From Escherichia coli (GTDB lineage Bacteria > Pseudomonadota > Gammaproteobacteria > Enterobacterales > Enterobacteriaceae), in NCBI RefSeq assembly GCF_003018115.1, contig NZ_CP027457.1: DNA of 64,000 nucleotides; one strand, given 5' to 3'. The notes beneath the pieces were generated by a model, which was given only the letters and a program-made list of their open reading frames with translations, searched no databases and was not told the DNA's origin. Below, piece after piece: positions 18,472-63,000 of the stretch. How positions within the stretch are numbered: the first letter of the stretch is position 1; each line of letters starts with the position of its first letter. A program made the position numbers and the translations under genes.

Positions 18472-19911
18472 ATGTCAGTACCCGTTCAACATCCTATGTA
18501 TATCGATGGACAGTTTGTTACCTGGCGTGGAGACGCATGGATTGATGTGGTAAACCCTGCTACAGAGGCTGTCATTTCCCGCATACCCGATGGTCAGGCC
18601 GAGGATGCCCGTAAGGCAATCGATGCAGCAGAACGTGCACAACCAGAATGGGAAGCGTTGCCTGCTATTGAACGCGCCAGTTGGTTGCGCAAAATCTCCG
18701 CCGGGATCCGCGAACGCGCCAGTGAAATCAGTGCGCTGATTGTTGAAGAAGGGGGCAAGATCCAGCAGCTGGCTGAAGTCGAAGTGGCTTTTACTGCCGA
18801 CTATATCGATTACATGGCGGAGTGGGCACGGCGTTACGAGGGCGAGATTATTCAAAGCGATCGTCCAGGAGAAAATATTCTTCTGTTTAAACGTGCGCTT
18901 GGTGTGACTACCGGCATTCTGCCGTGGAACTTCCCGTTCTTCCTCATTGCACGCAAAATGGCTCCCGCTCTTTTGACCGGTAATACCATCGTCATTAAAC
19001 CCAGTGAATTTACGCCAAACAATGCGATTGCATTCGCCAAAATCGTCGATGAAATAGGCCTTCCGCGCGGCGTGTTTAACCTTGTACTGGGGCGTGGTGA
19101 AACCGTTGGGCAAGAACTGGCGGGTAACCCAAAGGTCGCAATGGTCAGTATGACAGGCAGCGTCTCTGCAGGTGAGAAGATCATGGCGACTGCGGCGAAA
19201 AACATCACCAAAGTGTGTCTGGAATTGGGTGGTAAAGCACCAGCTATCGTAATGGACGATGCCGATCTTGAACTGGCAGTCAAAGCCATCGTTGATTCAC
19301 GCGTCATTAATAGTGGGCAAGTGTGTAACTGTGCAGAACGTGTTTATGTACAGAAAGGCATTTATGATCAGTTCGTCAATCGGCTGGGTGAAGCGATGCA
19401 GGCGGTTCAATTTGGTAACCCCGCTGAACGCAACGACATTGCGATGGGGCCGTTGATTAACGCCGCGGCGCTGGAAAGGGTCGAGCAAAAAGTGGCGCGC
19501 GCAGTAGAAGAAGGGGCGAGAGTGGCGTTGGGTGGCAAAGCGGTAGAGGGGAAAGGATATTATTATCCGCCGACATTGCTGCTGGATGTTCGCCAGGAAA
19601 TGTCGATTATGCATGAGGAAACCTTTGGCCCGGTGCTGCCAGTTGTCGCATTCGACACGCTGGAAGATGCTATCTCAATGGCTAATGACAGTGATTACGG
19701 CCTGACCTCATCAATCTATACCCAAAATCTGAACGTCGCGATGAAAGCCATTAAAGGGCTGAAGTTTGGTGAAACTTACATCAACCGTGAAAACTTCGAA
19801 GCTATGCAAGGCTTCCACGCCGGATGGCGTAAATCCGGTATTGGCGGCGCAGATGGTAAACATGGTCTGCATGAATATCTGCAGACCCAGGTGGTTTATT
19901 TACAGTCTTAA
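18472..19911 (+). CDS. aldA: lactaldehyde dehydrogenase (NAD-dependent aldehyde dehydrogenase)
   Basis: 479-aa ORF; catalytic Cys motif (GQVCNCAERV), ELGGKAP. Confidence 0.95.
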   Translation: MSVPVQHPMYIDGQFVTWRGDAWIDVVNPATEAVISRIPDGQAEDARKAIDAAERAQPEWEALPAIERASWLRKISAGIRERASEISALIVEEGGKIQQLAEVEVAFTADYIDYMAEWARRYEGEIIQSDRPGENILLFKRALGVTTGILPWNFPFFLIARKMAPALLTGNTIVIKPSEFTPNNAIAFAKIVDEIGLPRGVFNLVLGRGETVGQELAGNPKVAMVSMTGSVSAGEKIMATAAKNITKVCLELGGKAPAIVMDDADLELAVKAIVDSRVINSGQVCNCAERVYVQKGIYDQFVNRLGEAMQAVQFGNPAERNDIAMGPLINAAALERVEQKVARAVEEGARVALGGKAVEGKGYYYPPTLLLDVRQEMSIMHEETFGPVLPVVAFDTLEDAISMANDSDYGLTSSIYTQNLNVAMKAIKGLKFGETYINRENFEAMQGFHAGWRKSGIGGADGKHGLHEYLQTQVVYLQS

Positions 19912-19920
19912 TGAGTGAAA

Positions 19921-19949
19921 GAGGCGGAGGTTTTTTCCTCCGCCTGTGC
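19921..19949. terminator. GC-rich hairpin between convergent aldA and gapC (AGGCGGAGG-TTTTT-CCTCCGCCT)
   Basis: 9-bp stem; probable bidirectional terminator. Confidence 0.4.
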
Positions 19950-19952
19950 GCG

Positions 19953-20954
19953 TCAGAGTTTAGCGAATTTTTCGAGGGTGCGAATAAGCTGCGTGACGAA
20001 GCCATATTCGTTATCGTACCAGGCGACCGTTTTCACCAGTTGTAAATCGCCCACGGCGGTAATTTCCGTTTGCGTGGCATCAAACACCGAACCGAAATGG
20101 CTGCCAATGATATCGGAAGAGACTATTTCTTCATCGGTATAACCAAATGACTCGTTATTGGTGGTTGCTTGTTTAAGTGCGTTATTCACCTCTTCGGCAG
20201 TCACTTTTTTTCCGAGAATCGATACCAGTTCAGTGACCGAACCTGTTTTCACCGGCACGCGTTGCGCATGACCTTTCAGTTTGCCGCTCAGTTCCGGGAT
20301 CACCAGACCAATGGCTTTTGCCGCGCCCGTAGTGTGGGGGATGATATTTTCTGCCGCTGCGCGTGAAGCACGTAAATCTTTACCACGCGGGCCATCCACC
20401 AGTGACTGGGTGCCAGTATAGGCATGAATGGTCGTCATCGTGCCGACTTCTATCCCGAAACTGTCATGCAAGGCTTTGGCCATCGGCGCAAGGCAGTTAG
20501 TGGTGCATGACGCCACGGAAACAATGGTATCGTTGCCATCCAGAGTGTCGTCATTGACGTTATAAACGATAGTTTTCATTTCACCGGCAGGGGCGGAAAT
20601 CAACACCTTCTTCGCGCCAGCATCGAGATGCGCCTGCGATTTCTCGGCGGAGGTATAAAAGCCAGTACATTCGACAATGATTTCTGCACCTTTCGCTTTC
20701 CACGGAATATTTTTAGCCTCTTTTTCGGCGTAAACCGCGATACTTTTCCCATTAACGATAAGTGAATCTTCCGTAAAATCAACGCTCCAGGGGAACGGTC
20801 CGTAGTTTGAATCATGTTTGAGCAGGTAGGCGAGAATTTTTGGAGAAGTGAGATCATTAATAGCGACAACGTCTATGTTGCTTTTGACTTCAAGTAATCG
20901 ACGCAACACCAGTCGACCGATACGACCAAAACCGTTAATACCAACTTTACTCAT
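19953..20954 (-). CDS. gapC: glyceraldehyde-3-phosphate dehydrogenase C, apparently intact
   Basis: Uninterrupted 333-aa ORF with GAPDH motifs ([18 protein letters not shown]). Confidence 0.85.
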
Positions 20955-21142
20955 GGTTTTCTCCTGTCAGGAACGTTCGGATGAAAATTGATCCTTTCCA
21001 GGCTTAGACCAGGATTGTGGGATGGGCAATCTCCATTCTTACAGTGAAACGTAACGTACTGAAAACGGGTGAACAATATTTAATGAAATTTTGAGAAAAG
21101 CCCGTTATGTTAACGGAAAATTATGTTGAAGCAGGAAATGTT

Positions 21143-21673
21143 ATGGAAAATAAATACTCAAGGTTACAAATCGGCATTCACTGGCTGGTCTTTTTGCTGG
21201 TTATCGCAGCGTATTGCGCAATGGAGTTTCGTGGTTTCTTCCCACGTAGCGAACGGCCGCTCATCAACATGATTCATGTTTCCTGTGGCATCTCAATTCT
21301 CGTGCTGATGGTGGTTCGTCTTTTGTTAAGACTGAAATACCCAACCCCGCCGATTATACCTAAGCCGAAACCGATGATGACGGGACTGGCGCATTTGGGA
21401 CATTTGGTGATTTATCTCCTGTTTATTGCGCTGCCAGTGATTGGTTTGGTGATGATGTATAACCGGGGCAACCCGTGGTTTGCGTTTGGTTTGACGATGC
21501 CTTACGCTTCAGAGGCCAATTTCGAACGGGTAGATAGCTTAAAGTCGTGGCATGAAACGCTGGCGAATCTGGGATATTTTGTCATCGGTTTGCACGCTGC
21601 GGCTGCACTGGCACACCACTATTTCTGGAAGGACAACACACTTCTACGCATGATGCCGCGTAAACGTTCCTGA
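21143..21673 (+). CDS. cybB: cytochrome b561
   Basis: Internal ATG giving MENKYSRLQIGIHWLVFLL..., 176 aa, four TM helices with His ligands. Confidence 0.9.
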   Translation: MENKYSRLQIGIHWLVFLLVIAAYCAMEFRGFFPRSERPLINMIHVSCGISILVLMVVRLLLRLKYPTPPIIPKPKPMMTGLAHLGHLVIYLLFIALPVIGLVMMYNRGNPWFAFGLTMPYASEANFERVDSLKSWHETLANLGYFVIGLHAAAALAHHYFWKDNTLLRMMPRKRS

Positions 21674-21683
21674 AGAATATTTA

Positions 21684-21747
21684 AAGAAAACGCCTGTACT
21701 AAAACCGACCCGTGGTACAGGCGAAGAATACGGGTCTACATCGGAAG
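21684..21747 (-). ncRNA. rydC: RydC small regulatory RNA (Hfq-dependent pseudoknot sRNA)
   Basis: Minus strand reads CTTCCGATGTAGACCCGTATTCTTCGCCTGTACCACGGGTCGGTTTTAGTACAGGCGTTTTCTT (64 nt), which matches my recollection of RydC; lies between cybB and ydcA. Confidence 0.65.
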
Positions 21748-22162: not shown

Positions 22163-22354
<192 letters not shown>

Positions 22355-22370
<16 letters not shown>

Positions 22371-22420
22371 TCGTTGGCCTCGGTTGATAGAAATATCGGT
22401 CGGGGCCTTCGTCTTTCTGA
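22355..22420 (+). ncRNA. sokB: Sok-type antisense RNA to the mokB translation-initiation region (coordinates approximate)
   Basis: Inferred from the hok/sok architecture, where the antitoxin RNA is antisense to the mok start; ends not verifiable from sequence alone. Confidence 0.3.
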
Positions 22421-22644
22421 TTCCCGGTTAGCCTGAAAACAGAAAGTCTCAGGCACCCGCAGGCATCCTATGAGGTTTCCTTAGGGACGAAAATAATCAC
22501 TTCACGAAATTGCGTGCTGTTTTCCAGAATTTTTCGTCATTCGGGTTAGCCAGTTTAGCCATTCGTTACTCTCTTCATTCCAATAGCATTAATTTTCTCT
22601 GCAATAATTGTTGTAAAAATGTGACGCAAAGAGGTTTTTGGTCA

Positions 22645-25528: not shown

Positions 25529-26550
25529 ATGGCGAACAGCATCACGGCGGATGAGATTCGGGAACAGTTTTCGCAGGCAATGTCAGCCATGTACCAGCAA
25601 GAAGTTCCGCAATATGGCACGCTGCTGGAACTGGTAGCTGATGTGAATCTGGCTGTGCTGGAAAACAATCCTCAACTGCACGAAAAAATGGTAAATGCAG
25701 ACGAGCTGGCGCGACTGAATGTTGAACGTCATGGGGCGATTCGTGTTGGGACTGCACAAGAGCTTGCTACTCTTCGGCGGATGTTTGCCATTATGGGGAT
25801 GTACCCGGTGAGCTATTACGATCTCTCGCAGGCGGGGGTGCCGGTACATTCGACAGCATTTCGGCCCATTGATGATCCTTCTCTGGCGCGTAATCCCTTC
25901 CGCGTTTTTACCTCGTTACTCCGCCTTGAGCTTATCGAGAACGAAATTTTGCGCCAGAAAGCGGCGGAGATTCTGCGTCAGCGCGATATCTTCACCCCAC
26001 GTTGTCGACAACTGTTAGAGGAATATGAGCAGCAGGGCGGTTTTAACGAAACACAGGCACAGGAGTTTGTGCAGGAAGCCCTGGAAACGTTTCGCTGGCA
26101 CCAGTCAGCAACGGTAGATGAAGAAACCTATCGCGCCTTGCACAACGAACATCGGTTGATTGCTGATGTGGTCTGTTTTCCTGGATGCCATATCAACCAC
26201 CTGACGCCACGTACGCTGGATATTGACCGGGTGCAGTCGATGCATGGTTCCGGTACCGTCTGACGCCTTCGGGTGAGGCGCATCGTCAGGCGATTCATCC
26301 TGGAGACGATCCACAGCCCTTAATTGAACGTGGTTGGGTAATGGCGCAACCCATCACCTATGAAGATTTCTTGCCCGTTAGCGCGGCGGGGATCTTCCAG
26401 TCAAATCTGGGTAATGAAACGCAGGCACGCAGCCACGGTAATGCCAGTCGCGAAGCATTTGAGCAGGCGTTGGGTTGTCCGGTTTTGGATGAGTTCCAGC
26501 TTTATCAGGAAGCGGAAGAACGCAGTAAACGTCGCTGTGGTTTGCTTTAA
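25529..26550 (+). pseudogene. ydcJ: DUF1338-family (HglS-like) protein gene, frame-disrupted
   Basis: 244-codon ORF (25529-26263, good RBS) ends in a stop while protein-like sequence continues in frame +1 from 26227 to 26550 (...RYRLTPSGEAHRQ...YEDFLPVSAAGIFQSNLG...). Confidence 0.6.
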
Positions 26551-32377: not shown

Positions 32378-33051
32378 ATGCGTACCACATCATTTGCGAA
32401 AGTTGCAGCTTTATGCGGCTTGTTGGCTCTGTCTGGTTGTGCCTCTAAAATCACCCAGCCAGATAAATATTCTGGTTTTTTAAACAATTACTCTGATTTA
32501 AAAGAAACAACCTCGGCTACAGGTAAACCGGTTTTACGTTGGGTAGACCCGAGTTTTGATCAAAGCAAATATGACAGCATCGTCTGGAACCCAATCACTT
32601 ATTATCCGGTACCGAAACCTTCGACCCAGGTAGGGCAGAAAGTTCTGGATAAAATTTTGAACTATACCAACACCGAAATGAAAGAAGCGATAGCGCAGCG
32701 TAAACCACTGGTTACCACCGCTGGGCCGCGTAGTCTGATTTTCCGTGGGGCCATTACCGGTGTAGATACCAGCAAAGAAGGGCTGCAATTCTATGAAGTG
32801 GTTCCTGTTGCATTAGTGGTTGCGGGGACGCAAATGAAATGGCTACAGGCCACCGTACCATGGATACTCGCCTCTATTTTGAAGGTGAGCTGATTGATGC
32901 AGCGACTAATAAACCGGTTATCAAAGTCGTTCGTCAGGGCGAAGGTAAAGACCTGAATAACGAAAGTACGCCAATGGCTTTCGAAAATATTAAACAAGTT
33001 ATTGATGACATGGCGACCGATGCCACCATGTTTGACGTTAACAAAAAGTAG
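32378..33051 (+). pseudogene. ydcL: lipoprotein gene disrupted by a 5-bp tandem duplication (AAATG AAATG)
   Basis: Signal peptide plus lipobox (LALSGC); frame breaks at 32832-32841, so the ORF track splits it into 32378-32893 and 32839-33051; removing one AAATG copy restores one continuous 222-codon frame. Confidence 0.7.
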
Positions 33052-33068
33052 TTCCAGACGCGCCATCG

Positions 33069-33575
33069 TTAGATGGCGCTTTTTATCCGGTGCGCCGTAA
33101 AACCCCATCCTTCAGGGCGGGGATATAAGGCGCGGTTTTCCACCTGACCAGGTGTTTGCTGTTGTTCAATGTATTGGCGGATGACGGATATTGGCGCACC
33201 TCCGCAGCTACTGGCAAAATAGCCAGGACTCCACAAAACGCCTTTGTAGTAATACCTGACTGCAATATCTGGTCGATCTCGTCGCAGTAACCTACCCGAT
33301 ACGCCTTTGAGGCTGTTTACCAGACTGGATATCGCCAGTTTGGGAGGTTAGTTAATTAACAAATGGACGTGATCTGGTTCGCCATCCATTTCAACCAGTT
33401 CAGCTTCAAAATAAGCACATACATTTGAAAAGTAAGTGTGTAGTTTTTCTGTCGCGTCATGGTCAAAAATCTGGCGTCGGTATCTGGTGACAAAGACCAG
33501 GTGAACATGCATCAGGAAAACACAATGCCTTCCACGCCGGATATCGGTTTCTTTTTTCACAGACCAAAGTATCAT
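33069..33575 (-). pseudogene. tnpA: IS200-type HuH single-strand transposase TnpA interrupted by an in-frame TAA
   Basis: Minus strand reads ...MHVHLVFVTRYRRQIF...EPDHVHLLIN*PPKLAISSLVNSLKGVSGRLL...LWSPGYFASSCGGAPISVIRQYIEQQ...; HuH motif lies before and the catalytic-Tyr region after the stop at 33348-33350. Confidence 0.7.
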
Positions 33576-33582
33576 TTGACCT

Positions 33583-34791
33583 GTGAAACGATTACAGGCA
33601 TTTAAATTCCAGTTAAGACCAGGTGGTCAACAGAAGTGTGAAATGAGGCGCTTCGCAGGCGCATGTCGTTTCGTTTTCAATCGTGCTCTGGCACGTCAGA
33701 ATGAGAATCATGAGGCCGGTAATAAATACATCCCTTACGGGAAAATGGCTTCCTGGCTGGTTGAGTGGAAAAATGCCACTGAAACGCAATGGCTTAAAGA
33801 TTCTCCCTCACAGCCATTGCAACAGTCACTGAAAGACCTTGAGCGGGCTTACAAAAACTTCTTCCGGAAGCGGGCTGCTTTTCCCCGATTCAAAAAGCGG
33901 GGACAGAATGATGCATTCCGCTACCCGCAGGGCGTTAAGCTCGATCAGGAAAACAGCCGTATTTTTCTGCCGAAACTGGGCTGGATGCGCTACCGGAATA
34001 GCCGTCAGGTCACGGGTGTTGTGAAAAATGTCACTGTCAGCCAGTCCTGCGGTAAGTGGTACATCAGTATTCAGACAGAAAGTGAAGTATCAACTCCGGT
34101 TCACCCTTCAGCATCAATGATCGGGCTGGATGCTGGCGTGGCTAAACTCGCCACGCTGTCAGATGGCACAGTCTTTGAGCCTGTAAACAGTTTTCAGAAA
34201 AACCAGAAGACGCTGGCGAGACTTCAGCGACAGTTAAGCCGCAAGGTCAAATTCAGCAACAACTGGCAGAAGCAGAAACGCAAAATACAGCGACTGCATT
34301 CCTGTATCGCAAATATCCGCAGGGACTACCTTCACAAAGTCACAACGGCCGTCAGCAAAAACCACGCAATGATAGTCATTGAGGATTTGAAGGTCAGCAA
34401 CATGTCAAAGTCAGCAGCGGGTACGGTCAGCCAGCCGGGGCGCAATGTCCGGGCAAAATCAGGTTTAAACCGTTCGATACTGGATCAGGGCTGGTATGAA
34501 ATGCGCCGCCAGCTTGAGTACAAGCAGCTCTGGCGTGGCGGTCAGGTGCTTGCTGTTCCGCCAGCGTATACAAGCCAGCGTTGCGCGTACTGTGGTCATA
34601 CAGCGAAAGAGAACCGCCTGTCACAAAGTAAATTCAGATGCCATGTATGTGGATATACAGCGAACGCCGATGTAAATGGCGCTCGTAACATTTTAGCGGC
34701 GGGGCACGCCGTTCTTGCCTGTGGAGAGATGGTGCAGTCAGGCCGCCCGTTGAAGCAGGAACCCACCGAAATGATTCAGGCGACAGCCTGA
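33583..34791 (+). CDS. insQ: TnpB (IS605 OrfB family) RuvC-like RNA-guided-nuclease-type transposon protein
   Basis: 402-aa ORF; RuvC-like motifs ([24 protein letters not shown]) and Zn finger CAYCGH...CHVCGY. Confidence 0.85.
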
Positions 34792-57078: not shown

Positions 57079-57897
57079 AAGGATAAATGGCGTTCTCTGT
57101 ATTTATTCGCAATTATCTGTAGGACAAATATGGAGAGCTTGATGAGTCAGAGCTAAAACAGCAATTGATTAATAAACATGTTGATTTATTCAAGAAAATG
57201 GATGTATTTTAAATGTTGATTCTTAATATAACCTAATCAATAGATTATCAAGTGAGAGCTACACATTATTGGAGGGGCAGGGGAAAACACCATTTTGGGA
57301 ACAATGCATCAGGTACTCTTACCACTGAAGCAAGATCATCCGGCACCAGGTGGTGGTGCAGTGCTTTGGAAATGGTCCCCTCGGGGGAGTTGTCATTATT
57401 TTCTATGCTATTTGCTTATTATATTCATCAGGTGAATTTAATAAATTCCTAATTTGAAATATCCACTATTAAGCTAGTGTTTAACGACGTTAAGATGGCA
57501 ATGTGCAGATCATGTTATCAGGGTGGGGCGGTAGCGTATATTCCTTATACAAACCATCATTCATTTCAATGATTGTTATTGAATTATTTATTGTTGTGAA
57601 TAAAAAGACATTATGAATATTGGTTTGACTTTGCATATCAGGTTTTTTATTACTCGCTGTAATGTACGAGCCTGTCGTGAATAACGTCGAGAACCCATCC
57701 GTTGCGTTTGTGATTATTTTGTTGACTAAACAGACACCCGTTTCTCTGAAGTAAAATCCCAGACTAAATCATCACATAACCATGACATTTTTCTGATATT
57801 CCCCGGTAACGCCAGATGTCGACTCGCTTATCTCATCCGCCCGACATGTTGTACATGCAATATGTGCGGATTATTATTCATTTTCACGGAGGTTGCT

Positions 57898-60006
57898 ATG
57901 TCAACCGGATTACGTTTCACACTGGAAGTGGACGGCCTGCCACCGGACGCTTTTGCGGTGGTTTCCTTTCATCTCACCCAGTCACTCTCTTCACTCTTTT
58001 CCCTCGATCTCTCCCTGGTCAGCCAGCAGTTTCTCTCCCTTGAATTTGCGCAGGTGCTGGACAAAATGGCCTACCTGACAATATGGCAGGGTGATGATGT
58101 ACAGCGCCGGGTGAAAGGTGTGGTGACCTGGTTTGAACTGGGGGAGAACGACAAAAACCAGATGCTGTACAGCATGAAGGTGCACCCGCCGCTGTGGCGT
58201 GCCGGTCTGCGCCAGAACTTCCGTATCTTCCAGAACGAGGACATCAAAAGCATCCTCGGCACGATATTGCAGGAAAACGGGGTGACCGAGTGGAGTCCGC
58301 TGTTCAGTGAACCGCATCCTTCCCGTGAGTTTTGTGTCCAGTACGGTGAGACTGATTACGATTTCCTGTGCCGGATGGCGGCGGAGGAAGGCATCTTCTT
58401 TTATGAGGAGCATGCTTACAAAAGTACCGACCAGAGCCTGGTGCTGTGCGACACGGTCCGCCATCTGCCCGAATCTTTTGAAATCCCCTGGAACCCGAAC
58501 CCCCGTACCGAGGTGAGCACCCTCTGCATCAGCCAGTTTCGCTACAGCGCACAAATCCGCCCTTCTTCCGTGGTGACCAAAGACTACACCTTTAAACGCC
58601 CCGGCTGGGCAGGACGTTTTGATCAGGAAGGCCAGCACCAGGATTACCAGCGCACGCAGTATGAGGTGTATGACTACCCCGGACGTTTCAAGGGCGCCCA
58701 CGGGCAGAACTTTGCCCGCTGGCAGATGGAGGGCTGGCGAAACAATGCAGAAACCGCGCGGGGAATGAGTCGCTCGCCGGAGATATGGCCGGGACGGCGA
58801 ATTGTGCTGACGGGGCATCCGCAGGCGAACCTGAACCGGGAATGGCAGGTGGTGGCGAGCGATCTTCACGGCGAACAGCCGCAGGCGGTACCGGGACGCA
58901 GGGGTTCAGGCACCACGCTGGATAACCATTTTGCGGTAATACCGGCAGACCGGACATGGCGACCACAGCCGTTGCTGAAACCGCTGGTGGATGGCCCGCA
59001 GAGCGCCGTCGTGACGGGACCGGCAGGCGAGGAAATCTTCTGCGACGAACATGGTCGCGTGCGGGTGAAATTTAACTGGGACCGCTATAACCCGTCAAAC
59101 CAGGACAGTTCATGCTGGATCCGTGTGGCACAGGCGTGGGCAGGCACCGGCTTTGGCAACCTGGCGATACCGCGTGTGGGTCAGGAGGTGATTGTGGACT
59201 TCCTCAACGGCGATCCGGACCAGCCGATTATTATGGGGCGTACCTACCACCAGGAAAACCGCACACCCGGCAGCCTGCCGGGGACGAAGACGCAGATGAC
59301 CATTCGTTCGAAAACCTATAAGGGCAGCGGGTTTAATGAACTGAAGTTTGACGATGCGACAGGGAAAGAACAGGTCTACATCCACGCGCAGAAGAACATG
59401 AACACCGAGGTGCTGAATAACCGCACCACGGATGTGATAAACAACCATGCTGAGACCATTGGCAACAATCAGATGATTGCGGTTACCAACAATCAGATAC
59501 AGACGGTGGGCGTTAACCAGATAGAGACGGTGGGCAGTAACCAGATCATTAACGTGGGTTCTGTTCAGGTGGAAACGATTGGACTTGTTCGTGCGCTGAC
59601 CGTGGGCGTGGCGTACCAGACGACGGTAGGTGGCATTATGAACACTTCGGTGGCTCTGATGCAGTCCTCGCAGATCGGTTTGCATAAATCGTTGAGGGTC
59701 GGGCTGGGTTATGACGTCAAAGTCGGAAATAACGTTACCTTCACCGTTGGTAAAACGAAAAAGGATGATACCGGGCAGACCGCGATTTACTCCGCCGGTG
59801 AGCATCTGGAGCTCTGCTGTGGTAAGGCAAAGCTGGTGCTGACAAAGGACGGTCAAATTTTTCTCAACGGCACAAAAATTCATTTGCAGGGTAAGGAGCA
59901 GGTTAATGGTGACTCACTGTTGATTAACTGGAACTGTGCAGCCTCGAAATCCCCACCGAAGACCCCTGATGAAAAGCAGGATACGCCGGATATGAGAGAG
60001 TACTGA
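57898..60006 (+). CDS. vgrG: VgrG-family protein (T6SS spike, gp27/gp5-like) with Val-Gly repeat C-terminal region
   Basis: ATG at 57898 after GGAGG; MSTGLRFTLEVDGLPPDAF...; VG-rich repeats (NNQMIAVTNNQIQTVGVNQIETVGSNQIINVGSVQVETIG); high GC. Confidence 0.85.
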   Translation: MSTGLRFTLEVDGLPPDAFAVVSFHLTQSLSSLFSLDLSLVSQQFLSLEFAQVLDKMAYLTIWQGDDVQRRVKGVVTWFELGENDKNQMLYSMKVHPPLWRAGLRQNFRIFQNEDIKSILGTILQENGVTEWSPLFSEPHPSREFCVQYGETDYDFLCRMAAEEGIFFYEEHAYKSTDQSLVLCDTVRHLPESFEIPWNPNPRTEVSTLCISQFRYSAQIRPSSVVTKDYTFKRPGWAGRFDQEGQHQDYQRTQYEVYDYPGRFKGAHGQNFARWQMEGWRNNAETARGMSRSPEIWPGRRIVLTGHPQANLNREWQVVASDLHGEQPQAVPGRRGSGTTLDNHFAVIPADRTWRPQPLLKPLVDGPQSAVVTGPAGEEIFCDEHGRVRVKFNWDRYNPSNQDSSCWIRVAQAWAGTGFGNLAIPRVGQEVIVDFLNGDPDQPIIMGRTYHQENRTPGSLPGTKTQMTIRSKTYKGSGFNELKFDDATGKEQVYIHAQKNMNTEVLNNRTTDVINNHAETIGNNQMIAVTNNQIQTVGVNQIETVGSNQIINVGSVQVETIGLVRALTVGVAYQTTVGGIMNTSVALMQSSQIGLHKSLRVGLGYDVKVGNNVTFTVGKTKKDDTGQTAIYSAGEHLELCCGKAKLVLTKDGQIFLNGTKIHLQGKEQVNGDSLLINWNCAASKSPPKTPDEKQDTPDMREY

Positions 60007-60073
60007 TCCCGTACCTGTTCGATATTCATTAACAAACCAGCATTAAAAATAAACAGAAGAAGGAATTTGAATC

Positions 60074-63000
60074 ATGAGCGGAAAACCAGCGGCGCGTCAG
60101 GGAGATATGACTCAGTATGGCGGTCCCATTGTCCAGGGTTCGGCAGGTGTAAGAATTGGCGCGCCAACTGGCGTGGCGTGCTCGGTGTGTCCGGGCGGGA
60201 TGACCTCGGGCAACCCGGTGAACCCGCTGCTCGGTGCAAAAGTACAGCCCGGCGAGACGGACCTTGCGCTGCCCGGCCCGCTGCCGTTCATTCTCTCCCG
60301 CACCTACAGCAGCTACCGGACCCGGACGCCTGCACCGGTGGGCGTTTTCGGCCCCGGCTGGAAAGCGCCTTCTGATATCCGCTTACAGCTACGTGATGAC
60401 GGACTGATACTCAACGACAACGGCGGGCGGAGCATTCACTTTGAGCCGCTGCTGCCAGGGGAGGCGGTGTACAGCCGCAGCGAGTCCCTGTGGCTGGTGC
60501 GCGGTGGTAAGGCAGCACAGCCGGACGGCCATACGCTGGCACGGCTGTGGGCGTCGCTGCCGCCGGATATCCGGTTAAGCCCGCATCTTTACCTGGCGAC
60601 CAACAGCGCACAGGGGCCGTGGTGGATACTGGGGTGGTCTGAGCGGGTGCCGGGTGCTGAGGACGTACTGCCAGCGCCGCTGCCGCCGTACCGGGTGCTT
60701 ACCGGGATGGCGGACCGCTTCGGGCGGACGCTGACGTACCGGCGTGACGGACGGTGCCGGGCGTGAGTTCCGTCTGGTGCTGACCACACAGGCGCAGCGG
60801 GCGGAAGAGGCCCGGCAGCAGGCGGTCGTCGCCGGAGCAAAACGACCGGACATTCCTGATTCACTGCCGGAGAGCACAGAGTACGGCCCCGACAGGGGTA
60901 TCCGTCTTTCAGCGGTGTGGCTGATGCACGACCCGGCATACCCGGAGAATCTGCCCGGTGCGCCACTGGCGCGGTACACGTATACGGAAGCCGGTGAACT
61001 GCTGGCGGTATATGACCGCAGCAATACGCAGGTGCGTGCTTTCACGTATGACCCGCAGCACCCGGGCCGGATGGTGGCGCACCGTTACGCGGGAAGGCCG
61101 GAGATGCGCTACCGCTACGACGATACGGGGCGGGTGGTGGAGCAACTGAACCCGGCAGGGTTAAGCTACCGCTATCTTTATGAGCAGGACCGCATCACCG
61201 TCACCGACAGCCTGAACCGGCGTGAGGTGCTGCATACAGAAGGCGGGGCCGGGCTGAAGCGGGTGGTGAAAAAAGAACTGGCGGACGGCAGCGTCACGCG
61301 CAGCGGGTATGACCCGGTGGGGCGGCTTACGGCGCAGACGGACGCGGCGGGACGGCGGACAGAGTACGGTCTGAATGTGGTGTCAGTCGACATCACGGAT
61401 ATCACCACGCCGGACGGGCGGGAGACGAAATTTTACTATAACGACGGGAACCAGTTAACGGCAGTGGTGTACCCGGACGGGCTGGAGAGCAGCCGGGCAT
61501 ATGATGAGCTGGACAGGCTGGTAACGGAGACATCGCGCAGCGGGGAGACAGTACGCTACCGCTATGATGATGCGCACAGTGAATTACCGGCCACAACAAC
61601 AGATGCGACGGGCAGCACCCGGCAGATGACGTGGAGCCGCTACGGTCAGTTGCTGGCGTTCACCGACTGCTCGGGCTACCAGACCCGCTATGAATACGAC
61701 CGCTTCGGCCAGATGACGGCGGTCCACCGCGAGGAAGGCATCAGCCTTTACCGCCGCTATGACAACCGTGGCCGGTTAATCTCGGTGAAAGACGCACAGG
61801 GCCATGAAACGCGGTATGAATACAACGCCGCAGGCGACCTGACTGCCCTCATTACCCCGGACGGCAACCGGAGCGAGACACAGTACGATGCGTGGGGAAA
61901 GGCGGTCAGCACCACGCAGGGCGGGCTGACGCGCAGTATGGAATACGACCTTGCCGGACGCATCACCACGCTGACCAACGAGAACGGCAGCCGGAGTGAG
62001 TTTACCTACGATGCGCTTGACCGGCTGGTACAGCAGCGCGGCTTTGACGGGCGGACGCAACGTTACCACTATGACCTGACCGGAAAACTCACGCAGAGTG
62101 AAGATGAGGGGCTTGTCACCCTCTGGCACTACGACGAATCGGACCGCCTCACTCACCGCACGGTGAACGGCGAACCGGCAGAGCAGTGGCAGTATGATGG
62201 CCACGGCTGGCTGACAGAAATCAGCCACCTGAGCGAAGGCCATCAGGTGGCGGTGCATTACGGTTATGATGATAAGGGCCGCCTGGCCGGGGAGCGCCAG
62301 ACGGTGCATAACCCGGAGACGGGGGAACTGCTGTGGCAGCATGAGACAGAGCACGCATACAACGAACAGGGGCTGGCAAACCGCGTCACGCCGGACGGCC
62401 TGCCGCGGGTGGAGTGGCTGACCTACGGCAGCGGTTATCTTGCGGGGATGAAGCTGGGCGGGACACCTCTGGTCGAGTATACGCGGGACCGCCTGCACCG
62501 GGAAACTGCGCGCAGCTTTGGTAACGGAACGGGCAGTACAGCCGCATATGAACTGACCAGCACTTACACCCCCGCAGGCCGGTTACAGAGCCAGCACCTG
62601 AACAGCCTGATGTATGACCGTGACTACGTGTGGAATGACAACGGCGACCTGGTGCGCATCAGCGGCCCGCGACAGACGCGGGAATACGGCTACAGCGCCA
62701 CGGGCAGGCTGGAGAGCGTGCGCACCCTCGCACCGGACCTGGACATCCGCATCCCGTATGCCACCGACCCGGCGGGAAACCGGCTGCCGGACCCGGAGCT
62801 ACACCCGGACAGCACGCTCACGGCGTGGCCGGATAACCGCATCGCGGAGGATGCGCACTATGTTTACCACTATGATGAATACGGCAGGCTGACGGAGAAG
62901 ACGGACCGCATCCCGGCGGGTGTGATACGGACGGACGACGAGCGGACCCACCACTACCACTACGACAGCCAGCACCGTCTGGTGTTCTACACGCGGATAC

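Follow-up and report, generated by a model that had tools for sequence, protein, structure and literature searches.

An intact gapC gene between aldA and cybB in a non-K-12 Escherichia coli strain represents the usual state of the species

Results

Organization of the gapC locus

We analysed a stretch of 64,000 nucleotides of Escherichia coli DNA (RefSeq assembly GCF_003018115.1, contig NZ_CP027457.1), which is referred to as the window. At 19953–20954 it contains a single open reading frame of 333 codons on the minus strand, which starts with ATG, ends with TGA and has no internal stop. The first-pass annotation, which left the strand unstated, had described an intact gapC gene of this length here, and both the ORF listing and the family model TIGR01534 bear out that description. 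The coordinates of this gene and of the other features are collected in Table 1.

Table 1. Features of the gapC locus and of other segments of the window
Feature	Coordinates	Strand	Basis or remark
gapC CDS, type I NAD-dependent glyceraldehyde-3-phosphate dehydrogenase	19953..20954	-	ORF listing, TIGR01534, 7C5F, Pfam, identity to F9792
Active-site motif, residues 148-157, with catalytic Cys150	20484..20513	-	sequence and translation
Codon 39, AAA (Lys); TAA stop in K-12 MG1655	20838..20840	-	pairwise alignment
A7 run, gene nt 744-750, codons 248-250 GGA AAA AAA; A6 in K-12	20205..20211	-	alignment
Putative Shine-Dalgarno sequence AGGAG, 6 nt 5' of the gapC ATG	20961..20965	-	read from sequence; function inferred
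gapC-cybB divergent intergenic region, 188 nt	20955..21142	.	presumed site of the gapC promoter
9-bp GC-rich hairpin AGGCGGAGG-N6-CCTCCGCCT	19922..19945	.	between the convergent stops of aldA (19911) and gapC (19953)
aldA	18472..19911	+	convergent with gapC
cybB	ends at 21673	+	divergent from gapC
RydC sRNA	21684..21747	-	Rfam
sok antitoxin RNA	22307..22458	-	Rfam
ydcJ/hglS, disrupted	25529..26550		junction of internal deletion at 26242|26243
ydcL, disrupted	32378..33051		insertion AAATG at 32832-32836
IS609-type element	~33060..34791		intact insQ (tnpB-like) at 33583-34791
Segment without counterpart in the collinear K-12 alignment, ~4.4 kb	57830..62232		probably variable and Rhs-associated

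The gene order aldA–gapC–cybB–rydC is the same in K-12 and in the enterotoxigenic strain F9792. With a convergent aldA on one side and a divergent cybB on the other, the gene occupies the position of the E. coli gapC orthologue, and it shows 98.6% identity to K-12 b4493 and 95–100% identity to the gap genes that 5,409 genomes carry in the same position. The GC content of gapC is 48.3% as against 50.7% for the window, and its GC3 is similar to that of aldA. We also considered lateral transfer of the gene, for which the composition shows no signal; gapC is labelled 'laterally acquired' in PMC1796617.

The region between gapC and cybB is of equal length in K-12 and differs by five substitutions. 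A scan of this region with the sigma-70 consensus returned three promoter-like sites against 2.4 expected, which is chance level and uninformative as to the position of the gapC promoter. In K-12, a peak of sigma-S RNA polymerase in ChIP-seq has been assigned to gapC_1/cybB (PMC4447067). On the opposite side of the gene, the 41-nt spacer towards aldA is identical in K-12, including the hairpin that it holds. The RNA fold of this hairpin has an energy of −18.5 kcal/mol (z = −3.55 against shuffled sequences). A terminator scan missed it because it lacks a T-run; it is probably a bidirectional terminator shared by the two genes.

Beyond cybB, Rfam models located two small RNAs, both placed as in K-12: RydC, immediately past the 3' end of cybB, and, at the hokB/sokB type I toxin–antitoxin locus, the antitoxin RNA sok.

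The product has the features of a type I GAPDH

We observed that the translated product scores 447.7 bits against the type I GAPDH model TIGR01534, above its curated cut-off of 367.2, with residues 3–325 covering profile positions 1–330. The Pfam domains Gp_dh_N (PF00044) and Gp_dh_C (PF02800) are recorded for a protein identical to it. An uninterrupted frame of 1 kb together with a full-length family match far exceeds what could arise by chance.

The catalytic motif that had been reported in this frame is present at residues 148–157. It includes the sequence SCTTNC, and His177, in TTIHAYT, follows 27 codons downstream of Cys150; a cysteine motif of this kind with the catalytic histidine about 27 residues on is expected of type I GAPDHs. 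The elements of a Rossmann NAD-binding fold (GxGxxG and an acidic residue) are found as GFGRIG at residues 8–13 and Asp34 in AINDL. Asp34 is the residue that specifies NAD in GAPDHs.

GapA and Epd (GapB) share the fold, the catalytic chemistry and the Cys/His dyad with GapC; they are distinct paralogues encoded at different loci. The scores of the window protein stay below the cut-offs of the models for these relatives: 302.8 bits against 662 for GapA (PRK15425), and 277.5 against 530.55 (TIGR01532) and 280 against 539 (PRK13535) for the erythrose-4-phosphate dehydrogenase Epd. The same was true of the ArsJ-associated GAPDH model NF033735 (306.5 bits against 450), and no arsJ gene was found next to gapC, where the flanking genes are aldA and cybB.

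The window protein is identical in 332 of 333 residues to the E. coli enzyme EcGAPDH1 of PDB 7C5F and related entries, catalytic C150 and H177 included; the sole difference is at residue 68, where the window has Asn and the crystallized protein Asp. For EcGAPDH1, the primary characterization is reportedly that of Zhang et al. 2020. Asp68 was also found in six other sampled gapC alleles, and the Asn68 form is nonetheless very common. EcGAPDH1 reduces NAD with glyceraldehyde-3-phosphate, with a Km of 0.73 mM for this substrate, and both C150 and H177 are essential (PMC8615399). From this near-identity, we infer that the window allele would encode an active, NAD-dependent phosphorylating GAPDH.

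Two disabling lesions separate the K-12 allele from that of the window

In E. coli K-12, gapC had been described in the first-pass annotation as an interrupted pseudogene, and this is indeed its status. MG1655 gapC (b4493, formerly gapC_1 b1417 and gapC_2 b1416) is annotated as a pseudogene in RefSeq, with a length of 1001 nt as against 1002 nt in the window, and expression tables of K-12 use the names gapC_1 and gapC_2 with the entry 'gapC_1, interrupted' (PMC4512719).

Alignment to K-12 gapC, which had been set beforehand as the check, revealed 14 differences, so the two alleles are not identical. Two of the differences are disabling, and the window allele has neither. The first is a nonsense change at codon 39 (K39*, TAA). 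The second is the loss of one base from the A7 run, which converts GGA AAA AAA GTG into GGA AAA AAG TGA and thus produces a frameshift with a stop at codon 251. The non-disabling changes of the K-12 gene comprise two missense changes, R18G and N68D, and the rest (9–10) are in third codon positions.

The gapC differences, together with an identity of 98.35% to K-12 over the surrounding 12 kb, confirm the earlier statement that the source is not K-12 MG1655. The closest complete genomes over 24 kb of the window (14000–38000) are those of the O169:H41 ETEC strains F6326-C1, 2014EL-1345-2, F9792 and F8111-1SC3, at 99.8%; no complete E. coli genome among the 5,426 matched this segment identically. 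At the gapC locus itself, F9792 has 100% nucleotide identity to the window, and its gene is annotated, as in non-K-12 RefSeq entries, as 'gap: type I glyceraldehyde-3-phosphate dehydrogenase' (WP_000048684.1).

Intact and broken gapC alleles across E. coli

Among 5,426 complete genomes of E. coli, 5,417 contain the gapC region. We counted the K-12 lesions in these genomes by short megablast queries placed around each of them. An exact 61-mer with the TAA codon, representing the K-12 nonsense haplotype, occurs in 1,152 complete genomes (about 21%), an exact 66-mer with six A residues, representing the frameshift, in 1,046 (about 19%), and the 67-mer of the intact type, with seven A residues, is found exactly in 1,427. 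The counts of the K-12 haplotypes are exact; for intact alleles, the figures are lower bounds complemented by a sample, not a full census, because nearby polymorphism leaves 1,571–2,948 genomes without a 28-nt seed and because lesions elsewhere in gapC are invisible to such queries. Of 40 gapC matches sampled at even spacing, 32 had an in-frame span of 1002 nt, seven had a span of 1001 nt and one was truncated. All six divergent alleles that were fetched (95.3–98.3% identity, O157:H7 included) are annotated as intact.

Among seven intact gapC alleles, pairwise Nei–Gojobori estimates gave dN/dS values of 0.016–0.074, with dS up to 0.20 and DNA differences up to 4.7%. In the public assembly collection, 11,438 blocks index the exact window protein, and its exact look-up returned at least 1000 contigs. 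DNA alleles coding for this same protein show 2–16 differences, all of them necessarily synonymous, in genomes that are 1.4–1.9% diverged around the gene. The wide presence of gapC, its intact alleles, the low dN/dS and the synonymous-only variation under an identical protein establish that the gene is kept by strong purifying selection in most of E. coli. The intact frame is therefore no peculiarity of the window strain: it is the majority state of the species, and the K-12 lineage is the exception.

The K-12 pseudogene allele was recovered without a single difference (0/1001 nt) from one isolate taken from river water in Japan and one from human stool in Pakistan (gapC at 1017–2017 of loci L022 and L023), and among the matches listed, further carriers of the K-12 lesions came from pigs and cattle. 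Because the allele is base-identical in the river-water and human isolates, the K-12 lesions descend from a natural lineage and did not arise in the laboratory.

In strain SCPM-O-B-7615, a copy of IS1A replaces the 3' four-fifths of gapC along with the 3' end of aldA (locus L010, 2501–4678), and this IS1A-associated deletion is an independent inactivation of the gene. Strain ETEC1734 has a K-12-type gapC in which the same A run is shorter by one more base (A5) and which carries one additional SNP (locus L011, 494–1493); since the allele was already dead, this step represents continued decay of the homopolymer after inactivation. Taken together, the K-12-type lineage, the IS1-mediated deletion and the further decay in ETEC1734 amount to several independent losses, and gapC is therefore dispensable in some niches. 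Phase variation at the A7 run was considered and rejected: the six-A allele travels with the K39* stop, and slippage back at the run would thus not restore the gene.

In the avian isolate MS1494, gapC is intact, with an annotated frameshift in the adjoining aldA (locus L005, 1344–1602).

Other lesions and variable segments in the window

Lesions in ydcJ, ydcL and tnpA had been taken in the first-pass annotation, along with gapC, to indicate that the strain has its own pattern of gene decay. For ydcJ and ydcL this view stands. Compared with K-12 and F9792, ydcJ/hglS has an internal deletion of 322 bp, which leads to a frameshift with a stop soon after, and in ydcL an insertion of 5 bp causes a frameshift beyond about residue 152; K-12 and F9792 each have intact copies of the two genes. 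In ten further contigs that code for the window's GapC protein, ydcJ is intact and free of the deletion. Its absence from these contigs and from F9792 suggests that it is private to the lineage. The part concerning tnpA does not stand. The tnpA remnant of the IS609-type element is interrupted in the window, is a pseudogene in K-12 (yncK, b4578) and has an internal stop in F9792; being broken in all three, it is an old, shared lesion and not a marker of the strain. The insQ gene of the same element is intact and 98.8% identical to that of K-12.

Towards the end of the window, the segment of about 4.4 kb that lacks a counterpart in the collinear K-12 alignment adjoins a stretch with only 91.8% identity to the K-12 rhsE region. 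On account of this position and the missing counterpart, we read it as probably a variable Rhs-associated segment.

Discussion

The above results indicate that the window gene is, very probably, the intact ancestral allele of an accessory NAD-dependent type I GAPDH, located where gapC normally lies, with aldA and cybB on its two sides. In E. coli, gapC is the third gene of the GAPDH family, after gapA and epd. Its product would act as a homotetrameric, NAD-dependent, phosphorylating type I glyceraldehyde-3-phosphate dehydrogenase, in which Cys150 would form the thioacyl intermediate with glyceraldehyde-3-phosphate, His177 would serve as the base and Asp34 would select NAD. The allele is presumably expressed in its host, where its product would be active as a GAPDH accessory to GapA. 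As GapA is the main glycolytic GAPDH, the contribution of GapC may be small in laboratory conditions.

The gene could instead be intact in its frame and effectively silent, that is, a cryptic gene heading to decay that has not yet acquired a lesion. About one fifth of the complete genomes carry a dead allele, independent wrecks of the gene are known in SCPM-O-B-7615 and ETEC1734, ydcJ and ydcL have freshly decayed in the same window, and the consensus scan gave no convincing sigma-70 promoter, all of which would fit with such a course. However, dN/dS values of 0.02–0.07 at dS up to 0.20 are incompatible with long-term neutrality, and the identical protein has been retained over many synonymous DNA variants. 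Moreover, the sigma-S polymerase peak at gapC/cybB in K-12 (PMC4447067) and the published environment-specific promoter activity (PMC2949598) both argue against silence, and we regard this explanation as very unlikely. A GAPDH-fold enzyme with another main role, be it an Epd-like erythrose-4-phosphate dehydrogenase, an arsenate-resistance-linked GAPDH or an NADP-dependent gluconeogenic one, is more improbable still: GapC is a third paralogue, paralogues often specialise, and it does reach 277–306 bits with those NCBIfam models, which is weak support, but these scores fall far under cut-offs of 450–539 while the type I GAPDH equivalog is passed, Asp34 specifies NAD, no arsJ neighbours the gene, and the near-identical EcGAPDH1 turns over glyceraldehyde-3-phosphate with NAD (PMC8615399).

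An intact accessory GAPDH gene at this locus is thus the usual and previously documented state of E. coli, and the finding is correct but ordinary. Published work had already reported environmental isolates with an intact gapC and laboratory strains with a mutated one (Espinosa-Urgel and Kolter 1998, Mol Microbiol 28:325, as cited in PMC2949598); the same work is cited in PMC1796617. PMC2949598 further describes gapC as preferentially expressed in fresh water, with environment-specific promoter activity, and laboratory strains as keeping the promoter response and carrying mutations that lead to a truncated GapC protein. Our comparison refines this account in one respect. The phrasing that laboratory strains 'accumulated' mutations in gapC needs correction, as the allele is shared with wild isolates from river water and from humans.

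A broader reading would be that gapC is a niche-dependent gene that is repeatedly lost, its presence or absence tracking lifestyle (a secondary aquatic habitat versus the gut or the laboratory), with the A7 tract as a preferred site of slippage. Bearing on this reading are a large natural lineage that has the K-12 lesions (about 21% of the complete genomes), no fewer than two additional independent inactivations, and the series A7 to A6 to A5. The proposal of a slippage site is limited in that the A5 step occurred in an already dead allele and a case of the frameshift alone is not demonstrated. We consider this broader reading unlikely as it stands; if it is true, the state of gapC, intact or broken, would serve as an ecological marker for E. 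coli lineages and would not be a curiosity of K-12.

For annotation that takes K-12 as its reference, the result means that K-12 is atypical for gapC. An intact second GAPDH, if active as predicted, would also bear on metabolic models and on work with gapA knockouts in non-K-12 strains.
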